The position numbers and the translations under genes are program-made. The notes under the pieces are model-generated. The model saw only the letters and a list, made by a program, of their open reading frames with translations, was not told the origin of the DNA and did not search any database. From assembly GCA_038845975.1 (NCBI GenBank), contig JAWBQF010000025.1, positions 1-37,378 on the forward strand: a stretch of 37,378 nt of DNA, written 5' to 3'. The stretch's first letter is position 1. Each line of letters opens with the position of its first letter. This document shows positions 6,811-36,223 of this stretch, in pieces. This stretch comes from Candidatus Methanomethylicia archaeon. Lineage in GTDB: Archaea; Thermoproteota; Methanomethylicia; CALHIW01.

Positions 6811-7182
6811 TTACTTAAGCTCATTTATTATGATTGTTTTTATTTCTTCAAAGCTTGGAATACCTATTATTTTATGTTTTCCATTTATTATGAATGCAGG
6901 GTAACGTTTTACCTTATATCTTAATGATTTCCATATTCCTTGAGGAGTAGATGCATCAATAACGCTTATCCTGATTTTATCCCCGAAACAGTTGACGAGA
7001 TTAAATGCTAAATTACATATTTCTCTATAGTTTTCTCTTACTTCATTAGGGTAGCCCTTAAGCACTTCATCTATTAGAAATAGACCAGAAGCAGGAAGTA
7101 TTCTTTGACAATCCCTACAAATGGAGTAGAAAGTAGGGAAAACACCAAGGATTTCCACCTTAATCTGCAATGTCTCCACCAT
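6811..7182 (-). CDS. CxxC thioredoxin-fold-like protein
   Basis: CRDC near the N-terminus; C-terminal YKVKRYPAFIINGKHKIIGIPS resembles the cis-Pro/beta-hairpin of thioredoxin and glutaredoxin folds. Confidence 0.7.
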   Translation of the reverse strand: MVETLQIKVEILGVFPTFYSICRDCQRILPASGLFLIDEVLKGYPNEVRENYREICNLAFNLVNCFGDKIRISVIDASTPQGIWKSLRYKVKRYPAFIINGKHKIIGIPSFEEIKTIIINELK

Positions 7183-7486
7183 AATCCATATTTAGTCTAT
7201 TAATATAAAATTTACTATTTAATTTTAATGTAGTAACTCAATGTTTAAACCAATAATTTTCTTATAAGCTTTACATGACATAAGAGAGAGTTTAAGTTAA
7301 ATCATGATGTAGATGTCCCCTACATTGCTTGAATATTTATAGGAATTTCAACCAGCATATTAGATGGAAAACTATAGCTTAAATGTGGAAGTAATGGAGT
7401 TAGTAGATCTAGCTAATATTGCCTTAAATAAGCAATCTTAATAGTGATAGATTCATAATTATAAGTTAATTTAGCAAATAAATACT

Positions 7487-8497
7487 TTATTTAACTTCAG
7501 TTTTCACATTAATTTTCTCCTCAACATATTTAGCGAATTCATATGCTCCATTACTTCTCCTCTTATTCACTATTAATCTTGACGGTTTCGAGTTTTCAAC
7601 ATATTCTATTAATCCATTGAAATCTGAATGGTCACTGAATGCAATAAGCCACTTCCTCTTCGAAAGGTTTCTTATAGGTTTAGTAAATTCCCAACCGCTA
7701 AGAACAATCTTACATGAGTTACCACTATTTAAATACTGCTCATTGAAATGATTAGAGTAGTGGTTGAAATATATGTAGTATTTATCTCTAATAGCTTCCT
7801 TTGCTTCACTACTTGTTAATGGTAGATAGTCATCTATTCTTAAACCACTAACTTCAGCATATTTTGTCATTATATAGTGGGTAGAGGGGAGTATAAAAGG
7901 CGCTACTATATCGTTTTCTCTAAGCATCAGCATTACTTCATGTATTTTACCATAGTATGCATATATATGTACTGGGCCTTCCCTTAATAGTTTCTCAATG
8001 AAACTATTAAGTATATACTCAATATCACTATCAAACGGTCTAGTATAGCTTGGTCTACCATATACTGCATCAATAATTAAAATATCTGAGTTTATTACTG
8101 GAGTTTTAAGGGAAGGCTTTTTAAAATCACCAGTATATACTATTCTAGTACCATCATCTCTTTCATAAACTACCTGAATACTTCCAGGTATATGTAAGCA
8201 TCTTTCAAACCTTAGCCTACCATTTGAAAGCCTAATACTATCATCCATACTTAAAGGTAACTGCTGCTCTTCAGGTATTTGAACTCCTAAGCATTTAAGC
8301 CATTTAAGCGTTAGCTTTGTACCAACTATTCTAGAGCCATAACTAATACTTCTAGATAGATTTACTGTATGATCACTATGTATATGAGTAACAATTCTAA
8401 ACTTTAAACTATGATATCCATCTATAACAGCCTCATCTATAGTAATTCCCCCATTTCTAACCTCAACAAACCCATCCATAACCAGTATAACTGGCAT
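7487..8497 (-). CDS. Metallo-beta-lactamase fold nuclease, beta-CASP family
   Basis: THIHSDH, HIPGS, YTGDFK, DAVYG, FSDHSDF motifs. Confidence 0.88.
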   Translation of the reverse strand: MPVILVMDGFVEVRNGGITIDEAVIDGYHSLKFRIVTHIHSDHTVNLSRSISYGSRIVGTKLTLKWLKCLGVQIPEEQQLPLSMDDSIRLSNGRLRFERCLHIPGSIQVVYERDDGTRIVYTGDFKKPSLKTPVINSDILIIDAVYGRPSYTRPFDSDIEYILNSFIEKLLREGPVHIYAYYGKIHEVMLMLRENDIVAPFILPSTHYIMTKYAEVSGLRIDDYLPLTSSEAKEAIRDKYYIYFNHYSNHFNEQYLNSGNSCKIVLSGWEFTKPIRNLSKRKWLIAFSDHSDFNGLIEYVENSKPSRLIVNKRRSNGAYEFAKYVEEKINVKTEVK

Positions 8498-8768: not shown

Positions 8769-8784
8769 AGTAAAGTTTATATAT
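8769..8784 (+). promoter_or_regulatory. BRE/TATA promoter of the dsrE-tusA operon
   Basis: Purine-rich AGTAAAG followed by TTTATATA (8776-8783), ending about 30 nt before the ATG at 8815. Confidence 0.55.
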
Positions 8785-8814: not shown

Positions 8815-9228
8815 ATGCCTAAGCTAAGTATAATATTGTTCTCAGGAACTATTGATAAGTTTATTCCTGTAGGTATTCTCTCGCAAACAGCTGCGAGCAT
8901 GAATATTCCCGTAAGAATATTTGTTACCGGATGGGCTTTAAATGCCTTTATGAAGAGTGGAGTAGAGAAAGCTATTAGAATTGATAAGAATTTCGAGGAT
9001 ATGGCTCCCATACTTATGGATGGATTAAAGAGAATGAATGCACCATCATGGTATGATATGATTAAGCAAGCGAAACAGATAGGTGATGTAAAGGTTTATG
9101 CATGCTCATTAATGGCTATGGCTCTCGGAATTAATAGTAAGGATCAGTTTGACCCTATAGTTGATGATATTGTTGGGGCAGCATCATTTCTACAAGAAGC
9201 TTCTGATGGACAAGTAATCTTTATATAG
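8815..9228 (+). CDS. dsrE: DsrE-family (DsrE2-like, soluble) sulfur carrier protein
   Basis: LSIILFSGTIDK, VRIFVTGWAL, single conserved Cys in KVYACSLM, IVGAASFL..A....IFI. Confidence 0.88.
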   Translation: MPKLSIILFSGTIDKFIPVGILSQTAASMNIPVRIFVTGWALNAFMKSGVEKAIRIDKNFEDMAPILMDGLKRMNAPSWYDMIKQAKQIGDVKVYACSLMAMALGINSKDQFDPIVDDIVGAASFLQEASDGQVIFI

Positions 9229-9236
9229 GTGTATTC

Positions 9237-9479
9237 ATGATGGAGGAGACTAAGCCGTTTAGAACACTTGATGTTAGAGGTCTTGCATGCCCAATTCCTG
9301 TTACCAAAACAAGCCAGGCAATAAAAGATATTCCTATAGGTGGAATACTTGAAGTACTGGCTACAGATCCAGGTGCTTTAATGGATATACCTGCATGGGC
9401 TAAAAGTACAGGTAATGAAGTTACTAAGGTAATAAGAGAGGGAAACATTATAAAGATATATGTTAGGAGGCTTAGATAG
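9237..9479 (+). CDS. tusA: TusA-family sulfurtransferase
   Basis: LDVRGLACPIPV (CPxP), LEVLATDPG..DIPAWAKSTGN. Confidence 0.95.
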   Translation: MMEETKPFRTLDVRGLACPIPVTKTSQAIKDIPIGGILEVLATDPGALMDIPAWAKSTGNEVTKVIREGNIIKIYVRRLR

Positions 9480-9484
9480 CATAT

Positions 9485-10177
9485 ATGCTACCTAAACTCA
9501 TAACTATTTTTTTAGCCTATATATCTATAATTATCTTTATCTCCGGTATAATTATTCGCTTAGCTAAATGGTATACTAAATCTAGGAATATAGCTTCATA
9601 TACATTATATCCTAAATCCGGTTTTCCATCGGTAATATTAAGGATTACCCTATTTCCTAGAGTCTTCGAGACTAATAGGCTTCTATGGATTTCAGGATGG
9701 ATATTTCATGTATCTCTAATCCTACTATTATTTGGTCATTTAAGACTATTTCAGGAGCCGTACTGGCTTTGGAATATTTTAAAGCTGGAAACATATGAGG
9801 ATGTTTCCAGATTCGCATTCATATCTGGTGGTATTACTGGAGTCTTATTTATATCTCCAGTATTTATGCTTCTAGCTAGGAGAATGAGAGGTACACTCTA
9901 CAAGCTATCTACATTTGAAGATTATTTTATACTACTATTACTGGCTCTAATAGGTTTAACTGGAAACTATATGAGATTTATGCTTCATATAGATGTTCCT
10001 AAACTACAGCAATTCTTCATCGGCCTACTCTATTTAAACCCATCACCCCATCAACCTACAGATCCAGTATTCCTAGTTCATATGTTTCTAGCTGAGCTGT
10101 TACTAATCTATTTACCCTTCAGTAAACTAATACATTCAATATCAGCAACTATATTAACCTATAGGTTTACGAGGTGA
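9485..10177 (+). CDS. NarI/DsrM/HdrE-like diheme cytochrome b membrane subunit
   Basis: Multiple TM helices; four His at heme-ligand positions: WIFH..LFGHLR and LVHMFLAE..LPFSKLIH. Confidence 0.88.
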   Translation: MLPKLITIFLAYISIIIFISGIIIRLAKWYTKSRNIASYTLYPKSGFPSVILRITLFPRVFETNRLLWISGWIFHVSLILLLFGHLRLFQEPYWLWNILKLETYEDVSRFAFISGGITGVLFISPVFMLLARRMRGTLYKLSTFEDYFILLLLALIGLTGNYMRFMLHIDVPKLQQFFIGLLYLNPSPHQPTDPVFLVHMFLAELLLIYLPFSKLIHSISATILTYRFTR

Positions 10178-11439
10178 TTTGCTTGAGTAACGAGTTTGAA
10201 AGTAAAGTTACAAGTATGCTTCATGAAGTAATTGGGAGGGAGCTTACTCAATACTTTGATTCATGTGTTAAATGCGGATTATGTTTTAATGCTTGCCATA
10301 TGTATTCCTCAACACATACATTAGAGTATGCACCTGCATTTAGAATGGAGCTGTTAAAAAGGATTTATAAAAGGTATCTTTCACTATCAGGTAAATTAAC
10401 TCCATGGATTAGTAGAGCTCTAAAAATAAATTCTGAATCTTTAAATCAGCTTAGAAAAGCTGTTTTTGAATGTACTGGATGTAGAAGATGCGCTCTCTAC
10501 TGCCCAATAGGTATAGATCCAACATTATCAATCTCTATCTCAAGAGGATTACTATCAAAGATTGGTTTAGCTCCTGAAATACTTGGACAACTTGCTGATA
10601 TGCAAATTGAAAGAGCTAGAAGTATGGATTTATATAGAGATATTATTATTGAACAAATAAATGTATTAAGAGCTAAACTTAGAGGTGAGCTTAAAGACCC
10701 TAATGCAGATATACCTCTCAATAAGGAGAATGCTAGAATACTCTATGTACCTATAAGCAGTGAGGAATCAATACTTAGTGCAGCTAAAATATTCAATATT
10801 GCTAGGGAAAATTGGAGTCTAAGCGTTTACGATGCTGCTAACTGGGCTTTCTTCCTCGGAGATATTGAGAGGGCTAAAGCGATATCTAAAAGAATAATAG
10901 ATGAAGCATTAACTCTAAAAGTGGAAACAGTAGCCATATCTGAATGTGGACACGGATACTTCATCATGAAACATCTAATAGATAAATGGTTTAATAGGGA
11001 ATTCCCATTTAAAGTTAAGAATATAATTGAAGTATTAGCTGAGTACATATCTGATAAAAGAATAAATCCCTCCACAATCTCGAATAGAGTTACTTATCAT
11101 GACCCATGTAGAATAGCTAGAAATAGCGGAATTATAGAGGAGCCGAGATATGTTATTAGGAGAATAGTTAAGGATTTTGCCGAGATGAATCCAAATAAAA
11201 ATAGAAACTGGTGTTGTGGAGGTGGAGGTGGACTAGTAGCTATACCTGAACTTAAAGATGTAAGAGTTTCAACTGGTATATTAAAGGCTAAACAAATAAA
11301 TGAGACAAAAGCTGAAATTGTAGTTGCTCCATGTGAAAACTGTAAGCAGCAAATATCTGATATAAATGAAAACTATAATTTAAATGTAAAGGTAATGGGA
11401 TTAGTGGATCTAGTTAACACTGCATTAACATTCAACTAA
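10174..11439 (+). CDS. DsrK/HdrD-like Fe-S oxidoreductase (CCG domain)
   Basis: CVKCGLCFNAC and CTGCRRCALYCP ferredoxin motifs; degenerate first CCG domain with ECGHGY; intact C-terminal YHDPC..NWCCGGGGG..PCENC. The start overlaps the upstream stop (GTGA). Confidence 0.9.
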   Translation: MICLSNEFESKVTSMLHEVIGRELTQYFDSCVKCGLCFNACHMYSSTHTLEYAPAFRMELLKRIYKRYLSLSGKLTPWISRALKINSESLNQLRKAVFECTGCRRCALYCPIGIDPTLSISISRGLLSKIGLAPEILGQLADMQIERARSMDLYRDIIIEQINVLRAKLRGELKDPNADIPLNKENARILYVPISSEESILSAAKIFNIARENWSLSVYDAANWAFFLGDIERAKAISKRIIDEALTLKVETVAISECGHGYFIMKHLIDKWFNREFPFKVKNIIEVLAEYISDKRINPSTISNRVTYHDPCRIARNSGIIEEPRYVIRRIVKDFAEMNPNKNRNWCCGGGGGLVAIPELKDVRVSTGILKAKQINETKAEIVVAPCENCKQQISDINENYNLNVKVMGLVDLVNTALTFN

Positions 11440-11581
11440 GCTTGAAATCTCCTATAGCTCCATAGATGAACTTAATTATAAAGATGTAATTAAGTTTTAA
11501 AGAATCTAGGAGAACCTACAGTTATAGAATATGATACGGTAAGAGGGCCAATAACTACGTTATGTGTATTACTAATAATTT

Positions 11582-11955
11582 TCAGCTATTAAGTTCATTC
11601 ATTATGATTGTTTTTATCTCTTCAAAGCTTGGAATACCTACAATCTTATGCTTCCCATTTATTATGAATACAGGGTATTGCTTAACTCTATATCTTAATG
11701 ATTTCCATAATCCTTTAGGAGTAAATACATCAGTAGCACTTATCCTAATTTTATCTCCAAAATAGTTAACAAGACTAAGTGCTAAATCAATATTTTCCTA
11801 TAGCTTTCCTTCATATCATTGGGATAGTCCTTAAGAACATTATTTGCTATGAATAGACCAGAAGCAGGAAGTAGTGGTTGGCAATTTCTACAAATAGAAT
11901 AGAAAGTAGGAAATATGCTGAGAATCTCTACTTTAATCTGCAACATCTCTACTAT
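11582..11955 (-). pseudogene. Frameshifted paralog of the CxxC thioredoxin-like gene at 6811-7182
   Basis: Translates IVEMLQIKVEILSIFPTFYSICRNCQPLLPASGLF..YPND; 1-nt deletion near 11790 (TGT to T-T); then DLALSLVNYFGDKIRIS..KSLRYRVKQYPVFIINGKHKIVGIPSFEEIKTIIMNELNS*. Collinear with the first copy. Confidence 0.9.
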
Positions 11956-12576
11956 TATTTAAACTCCAGTCAACTTATATAAACTTATTGTCAGTAATAA
12001 TGGCTTTGTTAACTTTAGCTTTATTTGGGTTTCTCTTTATTTATGGTGAGTTTATGTTTAAAGTTGTTAGGTTTTTAGGGAGAGAACTCCATTTACTCTA
12101 GTTATTATGGTGCTTATATGTTTTCGTTCATCTAGGATGGCTTCAGATATTCTAAGCTTATTGTTGTAGGAGTTATGTATGGATTTGCGATGTTGCGGCA
12201 TACTTACATCACTAACATTAAAAGGATTAGAGCTATCTATGGCTTAAATATATATTGTAATTGTATTAAGTAATAGAATTCAATACTATAAAGCATCATG
12301 TAAAATATTAAACTTAAACGTGAAATATATAGTTTAAAAGTTAGAATTAATTGAGAGAATAATACAATACATTAAGGATAGAACTAAGCTATTCGATAAC
12401 TACATACATTAATAGAAGATAAAAGCTAAGAATTCATAGAAACACAAAACAAAATATAGGTAATAAACATGCTTAAGTTAACAAAGCTGTAATGATTGCC
12501 TTATGAACTTAAATGTGTAACTGATAGCTTAAATTAACAGAGTGTAATGATAAATTAACTTTAGATATTTTATATT

Positions 12577-12995
12577 TTAGCTTAGAATGATTTTAGCTAT
12601 ATTAACTAGTGCTCTAGCTATAGGTTGGTCTGGAAATCTATATTTATTGTTTTCTCTTGATATAAATGCAACACTTATTAATCTCTCACATAACTCAGCT
12701 ATTCTAGATCCCAGTATTTCCTCACCTATTATTATGCTAGGGTTTTTAGCCGTTCACTCCATGATGCACTGCCTCCAAGCTATCTAGAGCAAGTATTATT
12801 GCAGCATATCCCCTCATAGATTGGGTAAATTGTAGGAATTGCTTTACATCACGTTCAACTTCTTTTACTGCCTTAATGAATATTTCTTCGATAATTTTTC
12901 ATCAGGATATCTTCCATATACTTTAATATTTGTTAGAGCCCCAGAACAGAAGGAGTGCCTGGCACTCCATCGATAATGCTGATAGGAGTACCAGC
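12577..12995 (-). pseudogene. C-terminal remnant of an archaeal AAA-type ATPase (COG1672-like) with winged helix
   Basis: Across frames: IIDGVPG, KIIEEIFIKAVKEVERDVKQFL..GYAAIILALD, GGSASWSE, GEEILGSRIAELCERLISVAFISRENNKYRFPDQPIARAL. Several frameshifts; no P-loop region seen. Confidence 0.7.
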
Positions 12996-13283
12996 ATTAA
13001 TTGAATAAGTTAGCTATATTAAATACTAGGGAATTTATTAATGAATTCATCTGAAAACTATTTAAATATTGTTGAGACTTAATTAAGTTAATAAGTTAAC
13101 CATCAATTAATTATGGAGTTTTCAGATAGACTCAATGATAATTTTAAGAACAACAATATTACTGTAAAATCTACTTTAAATATTTTAAATAGATTTAACC
13201 TAGCTATAATGCGTTTATTGTATTTGAATCTATTCTGCCACTTCATCTTCCCCTAATAGACCAGAATGAAATTTACACTGGAA

Positions 13284-17727: not shown

Positions 17728-18315
17728 TTATTTTATTTTCTCAAATCTCTCTATTACAGTTTTCCAGTTTACTGCTTTAAAGAAAGCTTCAATATAGTCT
17801 GCTCGTTTTAACCCGTAGTCCAGTATGTATGCATGTTCAAATACATCCATTACAAGTATTAAGTTACCTCCAGGAATATGTCCTATATCATGTTCATTAA
17901 TCCATATGTTGAAAAGCTTATTAACTACAGGATCATGGTATAATACTACCCATCCAATACCGCGAATCATACCTATTGCTTTAAATTCCTTCTCCCAGTT
18001 TTCATAGGATTCAAAGTCTTCAATTATCTTTCTATATAGACTTGAGCTTTTATCAAGTTCAGTATAGTCTTTAGTCATATTGTTAAAGTAGTATTCATGG
18101 AGACGCATACCACAGAACTCCCATCCAAATCTACGTTTAACCTCAGCATACTCAGGAGTTCCTATTTTTCCATTTTTTATTAGTGTATTTAATGTTTCAA
18201 TAAGCTTATTCGTATTTGCAACATATCCTTGATATAGTGTAAAGTGGTTTTTAAGAAGCTGCTCACTAAACCCTTTAATTCCAATTAGATAGCTGAAATC
18301 TATAGGCTTATACAT
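17728..18315 (-). CDS. sod: Fe/Mn superoxide dismutase
   Basis: Metal ligands in NHFTLYQGYV, LHEYYF and MDVFEHAYILDYG; GIGWV. Confidence 0.93.
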   Translation of the reverse strand: MYKPIDFSYLIGIKGFSEQLLKNHFTLYQGYVANTNKLIETLNTLIKNGKIGTPEYAEVKRRFGWEFCGMRLHEYYFNNMTKDYTELDKSSSLYRKIIEDFESYENWEKEFKAIGMIRGIGWVVLYHDPVVNKLFNIWINEHDIGHIPGGNLILVMDVFEHAYILDYGLKRADYIEAFFKAVNWKTVIERFEKIK

Positions 18316-18321
18316 ATTTAT

Positions 18322-18828
18322 CTACCTGAATTCTCTAAACTTGTTTTTAGGTGCATTACATATTGGGCATCTTTCAGGTAGAGCTCCCTCAACAGTATAT
18401 CCACACAACTCACATACATATATAGGGCCTATAGCAACATCTTCCTTCCGATCAGCTGCCTGTTTAGCTTTCTGGTATAGGGATATATGTATCTTCTCAG
18501 CTTCAAGAGCCCATCCAGTTGTTCTTTCAGCTCCTGTTTCCCCCTGTAGCTTAGCTACATTGTTGTATGCTGGATACATTTCATCAACCTCAAAAACCTC
18601 TCCATCAACAGCTACCTGTAGGTTTTCCGGTGTTGTACGTAACATCCCTAACACCTTGTAGTGATTTGAGGCATGAACAAGCTCAGCATAAGCTATAGCT
18701 CTAAAAAGCCTAGCAATATTTGGGAAGCCCTCCTGCTCAGCTTTACTAGCGAATATCATATATCGCATATGTGCCTGACTTTCACCAGCAAAAGCACTTC
18801 TTAAATTATCCTCAGTCATTCTCCTCAT
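18322..18828 (-). CDS. rbr: Rubrerythrin
   Basis: NLRSAFAGESQA, ELVHA, EMYP, EKIH and a rubredoxin-like CELCG..CPIC. Confidence 0.95.
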   Translation of the reverse strand: MRRMTEDNLRSAFAGESQAHMRYMIFASKAEQEGFPNIARLFRAIAYAELVHASNHYKVLGMLRTTPENLQVAVDGEVFEVDEMYPAYNNVAKLQGETGAERTTGWALEAEKIHISLYQKAKQAADRKEDVAIGPIYVCELCGYTVEGALPERCPICNAPKNKFREFR

Positions 18829-18841
18829 AATCAGAACCTCA

Positions 18842-18889
18842 AATAAACCTTTAGGAGATGCTTAAAAATTTTATGCCTAAACTTTTAGG
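18842..18889. promoter_or_regulatory. Paired palindromic candidate operators flanking the rbr-sod TATA box
   Basis: AATAAA-CC-TTTAGG (18842-18855) and CCTAAA-CT-TTTAGG (18876-18889) either side of TTTTTAAG on the minus strand (18868-18861). A third copy TCTAAA-CC-TTTAGA lies at 19122-19135. Confidence 0.5.
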
Positions 18890-19470
18890 GTTGATTATAC
18901 TGAATTCGCTTCCAAAATATTTAAATCTTTTATAGAGAGTTTTACTATGAAGTTTTATAGCTTTCCAGTAAGGAGTTAGGCTTTAATAAATATATTTTAC
19001 TATTAAAGTTAGGGTTATAGGTCTAGACTGATAACATGTTTACTATAAACGATCCTATACGGCTTGATTGCTAGATGTTGCTATATGCCTGCTCACTATG
19101 AGATGGCTTAAGGAAATCAAGTCTAAACCTTTAGATAAACTTTTACTAATAATATATTAGAGCAAATTGACTCTATGAAGCTTATAGCTTAATCTAGTTT
19201 AGCTCTACCATCTCATCAATCTGGAGGCTATTCGTTACATAGATATAACTAGCAAGATTCTAAGTTGTTGGATAAATATAGCTAAATATGTTAAAATTAC
19301 TGTTCGCTATGATGCTTAATGAGTTTTATGAATTATTAAGTGTAGCTTAATTTTTCTTACGCTCTGAAACATATATTCTTAATTATCGATTCTGGTAGAA
19401 ACACAATTAAGCTACAAGCAAATTCTAGAAAAATATATATTCATGTGTTGTTTTTCTATATTGAGGATTT

Positions 19471-19908
19471 ATGACAGGTAAGGAAGAGCTTTTAAACATG
19501 TTGAATAAGGCTTTAGAGCTTGAGCATGCTGCAAGAATACAGTATCTAACACATGCAGAAATTGTGAAGGGAATAAACGCTGAACCTATAATTGCCAGAC
19601 TTAAAGAAATAGCTAAGGATGAGGAGAAGCATGAGGAAATGTTTAGAGAAATTATTAGCGTCTATTTAGATGGCGTACCTTCAATGGGGATAGCTGAAAC
19701 CCATCCAGCTAAAACAATAGCTGAAATTCTTGATGTTAACCTTAAGGATGAAATGCATGCAGTTGAATTTTATAGTAGCATATATGAAAAGCTACGTACA
19801 ATGAGGGATGAGCTTAAATACACATATTTCCAGGTAGAACATAAAATAAGACACATAATAATGGATGAGCAGGAACATATTACTGAACTAAGCCTACTTA
19901 AAGGCTAA
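19471..19908 (+). CDS. Ferritin-like diiron four-helix-bundle protein (bacterioferritin-like)
   Basis: ALELEHAARIQY, DEEKH, DEMHAVEFY, DEQEH (paired ExxH motifs). Confidence 0.9.
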   Translation: MTGKEELLNMLNKALELEHAARIQYLTHAEIVKGINAEPIIARLKEIAKDEEKHEEMFREIISVYLDGVPSMGIAETHPAKTIAEILDVNLKDEMHAVEFYSSIYEKLRTMRDELKYTYFQVEHKIRHIIMDEQEHITELSLLKG

Positions 19909-27039: not shown

Positions 27040-27615
27040 TTGGGAGTAAACTATGTTCTTGTTGGCGGTCTTACATGTATACTTATGGGGGTTAGGAGAA
27101 TAACTGAAGATGCTGACTTCATAGTTAATGTAGGTTCAGAAAGTGAAGCTGAAAAGCTTTATGAAGCCCTTAAAAACGGAGGCTTCAATGTAAGTATTAA
27201 AGATGTTATTTATGCATTTAAAAATAAGAATCACTTTACAATACTTATTAATAGTTACCGTTTAGATTTTAAATTCCCATCATCAACTCTCGACTTTGAA
27301 ACATTGAGGAGAGCTATAGAAATTCGTTTAGAAGACTCAGTTATCAGGATTGCTCGTCTCGAGGAAAACATAGCTGCAAAAATCATAGTTTTAGCCTCAA
27401 TGAAGGATCTTGAGGATGCTTTATGGCTTATGATCCACCATAGGGATAAAATAGACTGGCATAGACTAAGCAAGCTTCTAGGAGATCAGCCATCAAAAAT
27501 AATAAGCAACATAATACTGAAAATCGAGGATGAGTTTAAAGGAAATAGCATTATTCTAGAGAAATTAAGTAAGCTTAAAACTCTACTTAAAGACCTAGTG
27601 GAAATGAAGCATTAA
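27040..27615 (+). CDS. Nucleotidyltransferase (DUF6036/AbiEii-like); true N-terminus probably further upstream
   Basis: YVLVGG..GVRRITEDADF, RLDF, EENIAAK..KDLEDA, IDWHRL. The frame stays open back to 26959. Confidence 0.8.
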   Translation: MGVNYVLVGGLTCILMGVRRITEDADFIVNVGSESEAEKLYEALKNGGFNVSIKDVIYAFKNKNHFTILINSYRLDFKFPSSTLDFETLRRAIEIRLEDSVIRIARLEENIAAKIIVLASMKDLEDALWLMIHHRDKIDWHRLSKLLGDQPSKIISNIILKIEDEFKGNSIILEKLSKLKTLLKDLVEMKH

Positions 27616-31043: not shown

Positions 31044-31489
31044 ATGATTGTGAGGGATAGGCTTTCTATTGCTGAAAGATATGTTAATCTACTTCGTACA
31101 TTCCGGAAGAAGATTGGAGATGTTGGGGAGCTGTCTAGAGATCTTATCCTTCGTGGTGCTGTTGAGAGATACTTACAGTTATCTATTGAGGCAATTATTG
31201 ATGTAGGTTTCAGAATATGCTCCATATTAGGGCTTGAGAAGCCTGAAAGGTATTGTGATATAGCTAAAATACTGTTGCATAGCGGTTTTTGAATGATAAA
31301 TATTCTAAAAGGCTTAAGCTTTAGATAGGCTTCAGAAACATTCTTGTACATGCCTATGCTTCAATAGATGTAGCTAAGGTGTTCGATGCTATGAATAAGA
31401 TAAAGGAACTGGAGGAAATAATAAAGCAGATTAGTAAGTCTCTAGAGGATAAGCCCATTGATCCTAAAGATACTGGGAACCATAGGTAA
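31044..31489 (+). pseudogene. hepT: Disrupted HepT/DUF86 HEPN ribonuclease toxin
   Basis: AVERYLQLSIEAIIDV, then a frameshift in the T-run near 31286-31290 and an in-frame TAG at 31322-31324, followed by IGFRNILVHAYASID (RxxxxHxY) and TAA at 31487-31489. Confidence 0.9.
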
Positions 31490-31874
31490 AACATTGATTG
31501 AAAAAGTTAGGAAGATTCTTAATTCAAGAAGCCTCATATTGTTTGCATATATTTTCGGCTCTCAAGTGATGGGGGAAGCCACGATGAGAAGTGATGGGGA
31601 TGTCGCAATATACACTTCGAAAAGTATGAGCTGGAAGGAAATTATAGAGGTTCAAAACCAGCTTGAGGATAATATAAACCGTAAAGTGGATCTAATATAT
31701 CTAAATACAGCTCCACTACTACTAACATATGAGGTGATCTCGAAGGGAAAGCTAATACTTGATAGAGATCCTGCAAGTAGGGTAGAGTATGAGACTAAAG
31801 TATTAAGGGAGTTTCTAGATATAAGGCCTAGACTTGAAGAATACTATAGATTAGTGCTTCACATGGAAAGCTAG
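31458..31874 (+). CDS. mntA: MntA-type minimal nucleotidyltransferase antitoxin
   Basis: AYIFGS-x10-DGD, KVDLIYLNTAP, EVISKGKLI. Confidence 0.88.
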   Translation: MILKILGTIGKTLIEKVRKILNSRSLILFAYIFGSQVMGEATMRSDGDVAIYTSKSMSWKEIIEVQNQLEDNINRKVDLIYLNTAPLLLTYEVISKGKLILDRDPASRVEYETKVLREFLDIRPRLEEYYRLVLHMES

Positions 31875-35366: not shown

Positions 35367-35810
35367 ATGGTGAAGTCCAGTAAGGCTTGGGATTGGCTAT
35401 CTATGGCTGAAGATGATTTAAGAGATGCTAGAAGAGACTATGAGTATGAAAGCTTTGCAAGTTCTGTAAACCATGCAGAACTTGCTTGTCAGAAAGCATT
35501 AAAAGCATTAATAGTAGCATTAGGTTATGAACCTTTAAAAACACATAAACCATCAATACAGATAAAAACCATAATAACTGGAGGATTATTAGAGGGGAGA
35601 AGAGAACTTATAGATAGAATAGGTAGAATTATATCTTATGCAATGACCCTGGAAGATCAGGGAACTATACCTAGATATGGATGGGAAACTATTAATAGAA
35701 TAATTAAGCCATTAGAAATATATGATAAGGAGAAGACAAAATCATTATTAGAAAATGCAGAATATGTTTTCAGCAAAGTTAAGGAAATACTAGGTGAAAT
35801 AGATTGCTAA
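35367..35810 (+). CDS. HEPN domain protein (COG2250-like)
   Basis: WLSMAEDDLRDA, AELACQKALKA, KTH, PRY; overlaps the downstream MNT gene. Confidence 0.88.
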   Translation: MVKSSKAWDWLSMAEDDLRDARRDYEYESFASSVNHAELACQKALKALIVALGYEPLKTHKPSIQIKTIITGGLLEGRRELIDRIGRIISYAMTLEDQGTIPRYGWETINRIIKPLEIYDKEKTKSLLENAEYVFSKVKEILGEIDC

Positions 35811-36223
35811 ATATTGACTGGGTGAGAGAACCATATAAATCCTATCTGAGAAAGTATGTTGAGAGATTAATTGGTTTAGGTAATGTTAAAGCAGTATTAC
35901 TATTCGGATCGTTGGCTGAGGATAGGATGAAGCCTTTCCCGGAGAGCGATATAGATCTACTCATTATTGCAGAAAATCTTCCAGAGAATCCAGTAGATAG
36001 AAGGTTAAGGAATCTACCTCTTAAAAATGGGAATACAATATTTGAAGATGTATGGCTTACACCAAAAGAACTGGAAGATGCAGTTAAGGGGGGGTGGGGA
36101 GTAGTATTAGATGCATTAACATTTGGAGTAAAACTCTACGATCCTGAAAACATAGTGGAGGAAGCTAAAAAACAAATCGAGAAATACTATACCAGAATAG
36201 GGAGAATTTGGAAGAGAAAGTAA
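35804..36223 (+). CDS. Minimal nucleotidyltransferase (MNT)
   Basis: VLLFGSLA..ESDIDLLII, LTPKEL, GVKLYD. Confidence 0.88.
   Translation: MLNIDWVREPYKSYLRKYVERLIGLGNVKAVLLFGSLAEDRMKPFPESDIDLLIIAENLPENPVDRRLRNLPLKNGNTIFEDVWLTPKELEDAVKGGWGVVLDALTFGVKLYDPENIVEEAKKQIEKYYTRIGRIWKRK

Follow-up and report, generated by a model that had tools for sequence, protein, structure and literature searches.

The four-gene cassette at positions 8815 to 11439 of a 37,378-nt contig of a Candidatus Methanomethylicia archaeon (NCBI GenBank assembly GCA_038845975.1, contig JAWBQF010000025.1, positions 1 to 37,378 of the forward strand; this whole stretch is called the window below) belongs to a distinct and widespread gene family that combines the sulfur carriers DsrE and TusA with a membrane module resembling DsrMK and that is independent of the Dsr pathway. 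A redox function linked to these carriers, whatever its direction, is the probable role of the family; to the more specific reading, namely, a quinone-linked membrane oxidoreductase acting reductively on sulfane sulfur carried by TusA and DsrE, we would assign a probability of roughly 0.45. All four genes lie on the forward strand: a dsrE-like gene of the archaeal DsrE2B type (8815..9228; 137 aa, with a single Cys at position 97), tusA (9237..9479; 80 aa, active-site motif C18-P-I-P21), a gene for a NarI/DsrM-like membrane cytochrome b (9485..10177; 230 aa), and a gene for a DsrK/HdrD-like cytoplasmic subunit (10174..11439; 421 aa, GTG start). The open reading frame (ORF) listing bears out the co-orientation and the intergenic spacings of 8, 5, and -4 bp from which an earlier reading of the sequence by itself (hereafter the sequence-only reading) had started, and all four proteins exceed the curated gathering cut-offs of Pfam families. 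The TATA box which that reading had placed ahead of the operon also holds up. It forms part of a candidate archaeal promoter on the forward strand, in which a BRE-like GTAAAG precedes the TATA box TTTATATA (8770..8783) and which lies about 35 nt 5' of the dsrE start codon, a distance implying a short or absent leader. The element is kept as GTAAA plus (A/T)TATATAT in all four aligned orthologous loci (the window and contigs L115, L116, and L117, which are mutually close relatives), and their upstream DNA diverges save for this element and a short motif just ahead of the start. One 381-nt assembled contig from a metatranscriptome run, among three short pieces in all, crosses the dsrE/tusA junction with 4 differences and gives a weak hint that these two genes are cotranscribed.

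The arrangement is far beyond chance, and its gene order recurs in other genomes. A scan of one genome per species matched at least 601 stretches with at least 559 relatives, of which the best 80 loci were taken as a sample, not a census; partners were called by tblastn with the window's four proteins in the 67 loci that had at least 1600 nt 5' of the dsrK-like gene. A DsrM-like protein was found in 65 of these loci and all three partners in 57, with the gene order of the window in 53 of the 57 complete loci. The conservation of tusA and dsrE next to close homologues, on which the sequence-only reading had staked its case, is evident in 63 and 59 of the 67 loci, respectively. The ten incomplete loci mostly have no detectable DsrE, and three of the loci (L067, L079, and L080) have no TusA. 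Cassette loci are spread over Chloroflexota, Desulfobacterota, Spirochaetota, Actinomycetota, Bacillota, Chitinophagales, and other lineages. The cassette is therefore a distinct, widespread family and no decayed Dsr operon, and the description "minimal" given to it earlier is misleading, as the family even occurs alongside true DsrK in sulfate reducers.

Independence from the Dsr pathway is seen at several levels. The assembly of the window's genome (2.77 Mb in 76 contigs, 93.3% complete, with 4.3% contamination) yielded no match to the DsrC/TusE family (PF04358), to the NIR_SIR domain of sulfite/nitrite reductases (PF01077), or to McrA (PF02249), with the incompleteness leaving these absences provisional. 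The lack of dsrC and dsrAB that had been remarked on around the operon is in this way borne out genome-wide. An orthologue (50% identity) is present in just 2 of 401 sampled genomes of the phylum, namely, the window's own (G000) and a second archaeal genome (G271), which has the same dsrE-tusA-dsrM-dsrK order and gave no match to DsrC or NIR_SIR. In a different genus within this phylum, five genomes encode a 32-34% identical DsrK adjoining DsrM; no match to tusA or dsrE was found in these five dsrM-dsrK loci, and in the three that were checked, dsrMK is followed directly by two NIR_SIR genes and DsrC is present. These are true dsrMK-dsrAB loci, which provide a natural control within the phylum. 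Two sulfate reducers hold a true DsrK, a cassette copy (240-280 bits against the NCBIfam DsrK model), and DsrC, and genomes of Dehalococcoidales, Leptospira, and Chitinophagales have the cassette copy alone with no DsrC match. In a further 50 cassette genomes (representing 50 of the 65 TusA-DsrM-DsrK loci, and taken whatever their completeness), a DsrC-family match was found in 23 and none in 27. Altogether, DsrC is matched in 25 of the 55 bacterial cassette genomes and in neither of the 2 archaeal ones, such that 32 of the 57 cassette-bearing genomes searched have no match.

The phylogeny of the DsrK-like subunit likewise sets the family apart. A search among 8000 scored candidates recovered 3939 relatives at E <= 0.001, the closest being 80% identical, followed by proteins of 41-51% identity in very diverse bacteria and archaea. 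A maximum-likelihood tree was computed for 47 rows, comprising 31 TusA-adjacent DsrK-like proteins (including those of 23 of the 65 bacterial loci, chosen to span phyla), 7 canonical DsrK proteins, 7 other paralogues, and, as the outgroup, two fused NarI-CCG proteins of the window's own genome. In this tree, a cassette clade of 33 rows (support 82/94) lies apart from the 7 canonical DsrK rows (86/86), and the window protein branches, next to the other archaeal one, from the base of the cassette clade, where resolution is lost. The approximately unbiased (AU) test rejects a clade uniting the window protein with the 7 canonical DsrK proteins (log-likelihood 17.6 lower, p-AU 0.0043); this grouping had been fixed by the sequence-only reading, ahead of any tree, as the placement contrary to it, and nesting among canonical DsrK was not found. 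Two proteins, L067_4001 and L079_3733, nest deep in the cassette clade and have neither TusA nor DsrE in the fetched locus; the former locus holds three DsrK-like paralogues in tandem.

Profile scores by themselves separate these families less cleanly. Against the NCBIfam models, the window protein scores 247.5 bits with DsrK (NF045796; cut-off 400), 245.6 with TmcB (735), and 209.9 with HmcF (750), none of the cut-offs being reached, whereas the true DsrK proteins of the two bacterial sulfate reducers score 731 and 716 bits with the DsrK model. An archaeal DsrK encoded beside dsrAB, however, also falls under the cut-off with 313.9 bits, yet well above its own TmcB score of 238.2. The DsrK cut-off by itself is thus a poor discriminator for archaea.

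The residues that a DsrK-type enzyme would need are in place. The two [4Fe-4S] motifs, the ECGH sequence, and the single intact CCG domain that had been read from the window protein are confirmed: C31/34/37/41 and C100/103/106/110, as well as E257-C258-G259-H260 and C312...C347-C348...C387-x-x-C390, are invariant in an alignment of 30 sequences, with the first CCG domain degenerate (ECGH) and the C-terminal one intact. In Pfam, the protein matches CCG with 47 bits (cut-off 20.6) in one stretch (residues 306-394) and Fer4_8 with 45.2 bits (cut-off 27), and a hydropathy analysis detected no hydrophobic segments. An AlphaFold2 model built on the same alignment (pLDDT 89.3, pTM 0.89) has its best PDB fold matches in Mycobacterium smegmatis EtfD (9ojn; Foldseek E 9.3e-12, query TM-score 0.69), in LutA, and in the HdrB subunits of several Hdr complexes; a solved DsrK was found neither by the PDB sequence search, which returned 9ojn only, nor among the listed fold matches. 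The predicted fold is HdrB/HdrD-like and would place the subunit in a family of enzymes that cleave S-S bonds. The cytochrome b was correctly described as a four-His protein. H75, H85, H199, and H217, out of six His in total, are invariant in 75 of 75 sequences, and these four are the predicted ligands for two haems b. It has five hydrophobic segments in hydropathy analysis and scores 77.2 bits with Pfam Nitrate_red_gam (cut-off 22.9), 99.8 bits with NCBIfam DsrM (below the cut-off of 300, and aligned to positions 110-267 of 320 only), and 37.2 bits with TmcC (below the cut-off of 240).

The two carriers tell different evolutionary stories. The window DsrE matches Pfam DrsE_2 (60.1 bits, cut-off 25) and stays far below the NCBIfam DsrE2 equivalog (25.3 bits, cut-off 210); it is a single-Cys protein, as had been stated, with C97, its only Cys, invariant in 61 of 61 aligned homologues. 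Its match in the PDB (2QS7; E 5.9e-35, residues 3-137) is described in the available part of PMC4175335 as the DsrE2B of Saccharolobus (S.) solfataricus, and in fold family, active-site Cys, and nearest prototype structure, the window protein conforms to the DsrE2B subgroup. The named proteins among its 86 database relatives (E <= 1e-10; 107-153 aa long, mostly 130-139 aa) are exclusively archaeal. This type of DsrE was found in 69 of the 401 genomes sampled from the phylum; in the 29 best of these loci, tusA adjoins the dsrE2B-type gene 23 times, and a DsrM/K-like gene was found within about 1.5 kb in none. The window DsrE is 36% identical to the cassette DsrE of the second archaeal genome and 27% identical to a bacterial cassette DsrE, whereas the window TusA is 55% identical to the cassette TusA of the second archaeal genome, 47.5% to that of Dehalococcoidales, and only 36% to the other TusA of its own genome. 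As the DsrE is divergent and the TusA is nevertheless cassette-like, a member of a different DsrE subgroup seems to have taken the place of the cassette DsrE in the window's lineage. What is particular to the window is thus the archaeal version of the cassette with its DsrE2B-type partner and with no adjacent regulator.

Membership of the window TusA in its family (Pfam PF01206; 83.7 bits, cut-off 28.6) and its CPxP motif are firm, with C18, P19, and P21 each invariant in 68 of 68 sequences, but it scores below the NCBIfam equivalogs for both Escherichia (E.) coli TusA (37.9 bits vs 78) and YedF (44.6 vs 79). That the latter, a TusA-like protein of selenium metabolism, is its best NCBIfam match could be taken to indicate a non-sulfur role in which a YedF-like carrier presents selenium (as a selenotrisulfide or selenopersulfide) or some other thiol-bound species. 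Since the YedF score is well under the cut-off with the TusA model close behind, no YedE or SelD was seen in the annotated neighbourhoods, and the recurring neighbours of the cassette are sulfur-related, we regard such a role as very improbable.

The genes flanking the bacterial cassettes supply further hints as to function. A survey of one upstream ORF per bacterial locus (53 of 88 candidates) found regulators or sensors in 41 of 53, comprising 28 of the MarR type, 4 ArsR, 3 PocR-HTH, 2 LysR, and 4 two-component proteins, which points to an inducible function. Downstream, 51 of 52 candidate ORFs were surveyed (with a duplicate genome left out), and five are of sulfane-sulfur type: two rhodanese plus metallo-beta-lactamase fusions, which we take to be of the persulfide-dioxygenase type; a CoA-disulfide-reductase-like protein with a rhodanese, presumably of the persulfide reductase type; a flavoprotein-rhodanese-TusA-DsrE fusion; and a CsoR/CstR-family repressor, CstR being a persulfide sensor. 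Though few, these neighbours fit with the handling of sulfane sulfur. The fusion (L076:5412-7892) is an 826-aa polypeptide that combines a CoA-disulfide-reductase-like flavoprotein, rhodanese, TusA, and DsrE directly 3' of the cassette in a member of the Oscillospiraceae. The FadL/TodX-like outer-membrane proteins, which are found downstream in loci L021, L027, L033, L043, L045, L046, L056, L058, L060, L061, L063, L069, L070, L072, and L074, belong to a class of channels that transport hydrophobic molecules, and a link to the uptake of elemental sulfur is conceivable. The remaining downstream ORFs are varied or belong to no family.

Under the reading that we prefer, the four genes would constitute a single operon, its product being a membrane-bound oxidoreductase that is linked to quinone and acts on carrier-held sulfur. 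The dihaem DsrM-like cytochrome b would trade electrons with the membrane quinone pool, and the DsrK-like subunit would relay them via its two [4Fe-4S] clusters to the cluster of the CCG domain, where the sulfane sulfur held on Cys18 of TusA and/or Cys97 of DsrE would be reductively cleaved. This sulfur might be present as a persulfide or as a TusA-S(n)-DsrE bridge, which would correspond, with two proteins, to the trisulfide of DsrC; its cleavage would free sulfide and regenerate the carriers. Such a unit would run with neither DsrAB nor DsrC and would serve for the removal or the respiration of sulfur that is zero-valent or bound to protein. The TusA/DsrE-linked oxidoreductase proposed by the sequence-only reading is in part supported, its gene content, Dsr independence, conserved linkage, and cofactor residues being observed; what acts as its substrate, that it runs reductively, and whether it conserves energy belong to what we infer.

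Several points weigh against this reading. The support of the cassette clade is moderate (82/94) and the end branch of the window protein is long (0.93); sulfane-sulfur genes are scarce among the downstream neighbours (5 of 51), the commonest downstream gene being that for the FadL/TodX-like protein (15 of 51); no regulator, rhodanese, or sulfur transporter was found beside the cassette in the window; and the RNA support is a single assembled contig from a single run, three raw-read runs having given no matching read. With regard to direction, a haem-copper oxidase subunit I is present in the window's genome, in which no [NiFe]-hydrogenase was matched, making an oxidative role feasible here, and EtfD, the closest solved fold, passes electrons to menaquinone. 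As for the carriers, the only biochemical study of the DsrE2B type, PMC4175335, reports in its available part that the DsrE2B of Metallosphaera (M.) cuprina was unreactive with NaSH or GSSH, with polysulfide, and with thiosulfate, tetrathionate, or sulfite and accepted no thiosulfonate from DsrE3A or TusA.

The last of these observations bears on a further alternative, a cytoplasmic thiosulfonate/tetrathionate reductase in which a Cys-S-thiosulfonate on TusA (and DsrE) would be cleaved to thiosulfate at the DsrK-like site. According to the same study, as far as its available part goes, archaeal TusA and DsrE3A do form Cys-S-thiosulfonates with tetrathionate, and a tetrathionate-TusA-DsrE route is proposed for sulfur disproportionators in the accessible portion of PMC13490349. 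Nevertheless, the DsrE2B type, which is the one present here, is that which accepted no thiosulfonate (PMC4175335, available part), and no gene for forming or importing tetrathionate was found beside the cassette in the window, so that this alternative appears improbable.

The chief alternative to the preferred reductive reading is the same complex run in reverse, which would oxidise sulfide, alone or together with the carrier thiols, build the TusA/DsrE persulfide or trisulfide, and reduce quinone. This would amount to a cytoplasmic alternative to sulfide:quinone oxidoreductase that feeds sulfane sulfur to thiolated tRNA, the molybdenum cofactor, Fe-S clusters, or oxidation and detoxification. 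The haem-copper oxidase of the genome, together with the superoxide dismutase and rubrerythrin encoded in the window, makes re-oxidation of the quinol possible; the lack of a [NiFe]-hydrogenase match in the genome and the closest fold, that of EtfD, which donates electrons to quinone, point the same way. In the passages available, PMC13293266 gives a model for cable bacteria (2026) in which DsrMKJ makes the DsrC trisulfide while reducing quinone, and PMC10504309 treats oxidative DsrMK as known in sulfur oxidisers. On the other hand, the biosynthetic need for sulfur already has its own dsrE-tusA pair in this genome, together with a cysteine desulfurase and IscU, and no sHdr or rDsr system was found among the CCG-protein loci examined. 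Many of the best 80 loci, moreover, belong to Desulfobacterota, Dehalococcoidia, and other groups of anaerobes. We therefore consider the reverse direction a serious possibility that is still, on balance, unlikely, although electron flow either way is conceivable given the quinone-linked complexes and the oxidase of this genome.

A bolder version of the proposal has DsrC replaced by the pair of TusA and DsrE, the sulfane sulfur bridging their cysteines being reduced or formed by the DsrMK-like complex in exchange with the quinone pool. We think this rather doubtful. If it were true, it would imply a cytoplasmic, energy-coupled "protein-persulfide respiration" in many anaerobic bacteria and some archaea, operating with no need of sulfite reductase or of a polysulfide reductase in the periplasm, and would make the DsrMK module older than, or parallel to, its use in the Dsr pathway.

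The immediate surroundings of the cassette show that it behaves as a self-contained unit. On three metagenome contigs with an 80%-identical orthologue of the DsrK-like protein, the four proteins are 71-88% identical to those of the window and the flanks differ; among these close relatives, the four-gene cassette is the sole conserved unit. On a further contig, L118, both sides run collinear with L115, and all that is left of the cassette is the last 97 dsrK-like codons (L118:7001-7291), which makes it a natural deletion variant. In the window itself, a 61-nt relic (7367-7427, forward strand) between the genes for a thioredoxin-like and a metallo-beta-lactamase-fold protein shares 80% identity with the dsrK-like 3' end (11368-11428) and stays in frame up to a stop codon, as would be expected if a second copy had been lost or the region had long ago been rearranged. 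Such features invite the view that in this archaeon the cassette arrived by horizontal transfer, is an accessory that the cell can spare, and has no role at present: its spread is patchy (2 of 401 genomes of the phylum, and 0 of 39 of the same class at E <= 1e-40), the flanks vary between 80%-identical orthologues, and the deletion in L118 and the relic fit this view as well. Yet none of the four genes is broken and no cofactor ligand is missing, the proteins retain 71-88% amino-acid identity and the promoter its core between two related lineages, and the GC content is the same as that of the surroundings. We hold it highly unlikely that the unit is without function.

A further trace of rearrangement is found in the flanks. 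The thioredoxin-like gene (123 aa, CxxC) is present twice on the reverse strand, at 6811-7182 and 11562-11970, on either side of the cassette region, the copies being about 75-85% identical in nucleotide sequence. A frameshift interrupts the downstream copy in the window; in L114, a near-identical metagenome contig that an indel of roughly 90 nt near 13045-13134 sets apart from the window, its reading frame runs through for 122 residues. The decayed copy makes up part of the ORF-poor stretch 11440-13283, a region of about 1.8 kb following the cassette with no ORF of at least 100 aa, in which no Rfam match was found at E <= 0.1. The thioredoxin-like gene was considered as a conserved partner of the cassette and dismissed, as it is missing beside the orthologues and is unrelated to the ORF by the cassette of the second archaeal genome. 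The divergent 336-aa metallo-beta-lactamase-fold gene (7487-8497) was similarly rejected as a persulfide dioxygenase: it has a weak match to the ligase-associated exonuclease model (72.6 vs 325 bits), also matches beta-CASP models, and is not beside the 80% orthologues. Elsewhere in the window there are a cluster of oxidative-stress genes (Fe/Mn superoxide dismutase, rubrerythrin, and a ferritin-like protein) and genes of toxin-antitoxin or defence type (AbiEii, HEPN plus nucleotidyltransferase pairs, and PaREP1), these stress and defence genes being distributed over 531-1034, 17728-19908, 27040-27615, 31458-31874, and 35367-36223.

The rest of the genome offers a wider redox and sulfur context. 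It contains four molybdopterin oxidoreductases, and no cytochrome bd oxidase was matched. A second dsrE-tusA pair (G000:C12:34157-36516, corresponding to L083:9658-12017) is followed by a class-V aminotransferase of the cysteine desulfurase type and a NifU/IscU-like gene and looks like a biosynthetic sulfur-relay operon. An sHdr system was sought in this genome and rejected on two grounds, the company of that second pair and the contexts of ten other CCG-protein loci, which are lactate/glycolate-oxidase-like, Sdh/Frd-like, Lut-like, and HdrBC-like. Another cluster (G000:C4:80687-86918; L084:6688-12919) encodes a fused NarI-CCG protein (659 aa), a 172-aa ORF with no family, a DsrO-like 4Fe-4S dicluster protein, and a DsrP-like NrfD-family protein, with a further NarI-like gene nearby; its predicted products would make up a complex resembling Hme/DsrMKOP, here in a genome where neither DsrAB nor DsrC was matched. 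A third (G000:C11:46445-52080; L085:4446-10081) has, one after another, genes for a lipoyl protein like GcvH, a flavoprotein like dihydrolipoamide dehydrogenase, an EtfD/EMO-like fusion of NarI and CCG parts (682 aa), EtfB, and EtfA. MtrD and MtrE are encoded on contig C2 (G000:C2:69634-71336; L089:1635-3337) in this genome with no McrA match. Mtr in company with a haem-copper oxidase and with no match to McrA or [NiFe]-hydrogenase is an unusual combination, and a foreign contig may be involved, the contamination being 4.3%. Having Mtr but no Mcr is a trait of published Culexarchaeia, which this genome resembles in part only; the paper on them makes no mention of TusA or DsrE.

Comparison with known systems places the cassette among the DsrMK/HdrED-type modules, as a member in its own right. 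DsrMKJOP is the menaquinol:DsrC-trisulfide oxidoreductase of dissimilatory sulfite reduction, and the likeness to its DsrMK part is close: both pair a NarI-type dihaem cytochrome b with a cytoplasmic subunit that has the ligands for two [4Fe-4S] clusters and a C-terminal CCG domain, and DsrK is the best-scoring named NCBIfam family for the window subunit. The window protein, however, falls in a separate clade and scores under the DsrK and DsrM cut-offs, and its partners are TusA and DsrE rather than the DsrC of DsrMKJOP, no dsrAB or dsrC being matched in its own genome. HdrED, TmcBC, and HmcEF share with it a membrane cytochrome b and an HdrD-type Fe-S/CCG module. The TmcBC and HmcEF equivalog scores are not reached, and the window operon has no multihaem cytochrome c partner; for a reduction of the HdrED type, the lack of an McrA match would mean that there is no CoM-S-S-CoB. 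EtfD/EMO, which provides the closest solved structure (9ojn), has a comparable architecture of quinone-linked cytochrome b and HdrD-like parts, but EtfD is one fused polypeptide working with EtfAB, whereas the cassette consists of separate genes with no etf nearby. The fused protein that the genome itself encodes next to etfBA is another one and roots outside the DsrK-like group.

In the CstR-CstA-CstB system of Staphylococcus and in CoADR-rhodanese, TusA-like, DsrE-like, and rhodanese domains bring persulfide sulfur to a terminal enzyme that is soluble, being either a dioxygenase or an NAD(P)H-dependent flavoprotein. Genes of these kinds lie beside some of the bacterial cassettes, and the cassette enzyme would differ in being an O2-free, quinone-linked membrane complex. 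The window further shares a DsrE2B-type DsrE with the sHdr-linked DsrE3A/DsrE2B/TusA relay of Sulfolobales, as set out for M. cuprina in the available part of PMC4175335; there the resemblance ends, as the window pair is joined to a membrane DsrMK-like enzyme and no DsrE3A or sHdr cluster was seen. In the literature searched, in which subscription journals and supplements were thinly covered, we found no description of the four-gene cassette, including in PMC11094781, PMC13047784, and PMC9723716. The nearest published statement found comes from the accessible portion of PMC13293266, where archaeal dsrEFH type II, syntenic with tusA, is reported beside dsrMK or qmoAB and to co-occur mostly with reductive dsrAB (73.9%). 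Those are three-gene sets delivering to DsrC, whereas the window has a single dsrE and its genome no dsrC or dsrAB match.

These findings have a practical consequence, in that complexes of the DsrMK type are treated as markers of dissimilatory sulfite metabolism. Annotation of the cassette as dsrMK would mis-assign sulfur metabolism, because this sister family has other carriers and 32 of the 57 genomes bearing it have no DsrC match. The archaeal loci furnish natural controls for such distinctions, in the form of the same-phylum dsrMK-dsrAB loci, the deletion variant, and the swap of the DsrE partner. If the proposed function is true, it would represent an oxygen-independent means of handling reactive sulfane sulfur and would give DsrE2-type proteins a role. 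It would also connect sulfur trafficking in the cytoplasm with the respiratory chain in a new way, and this in groups not seen as sulfur respirers, such as Dehalococcoidia, spirochaetes, Actinomycetota, and Thermoproteota.

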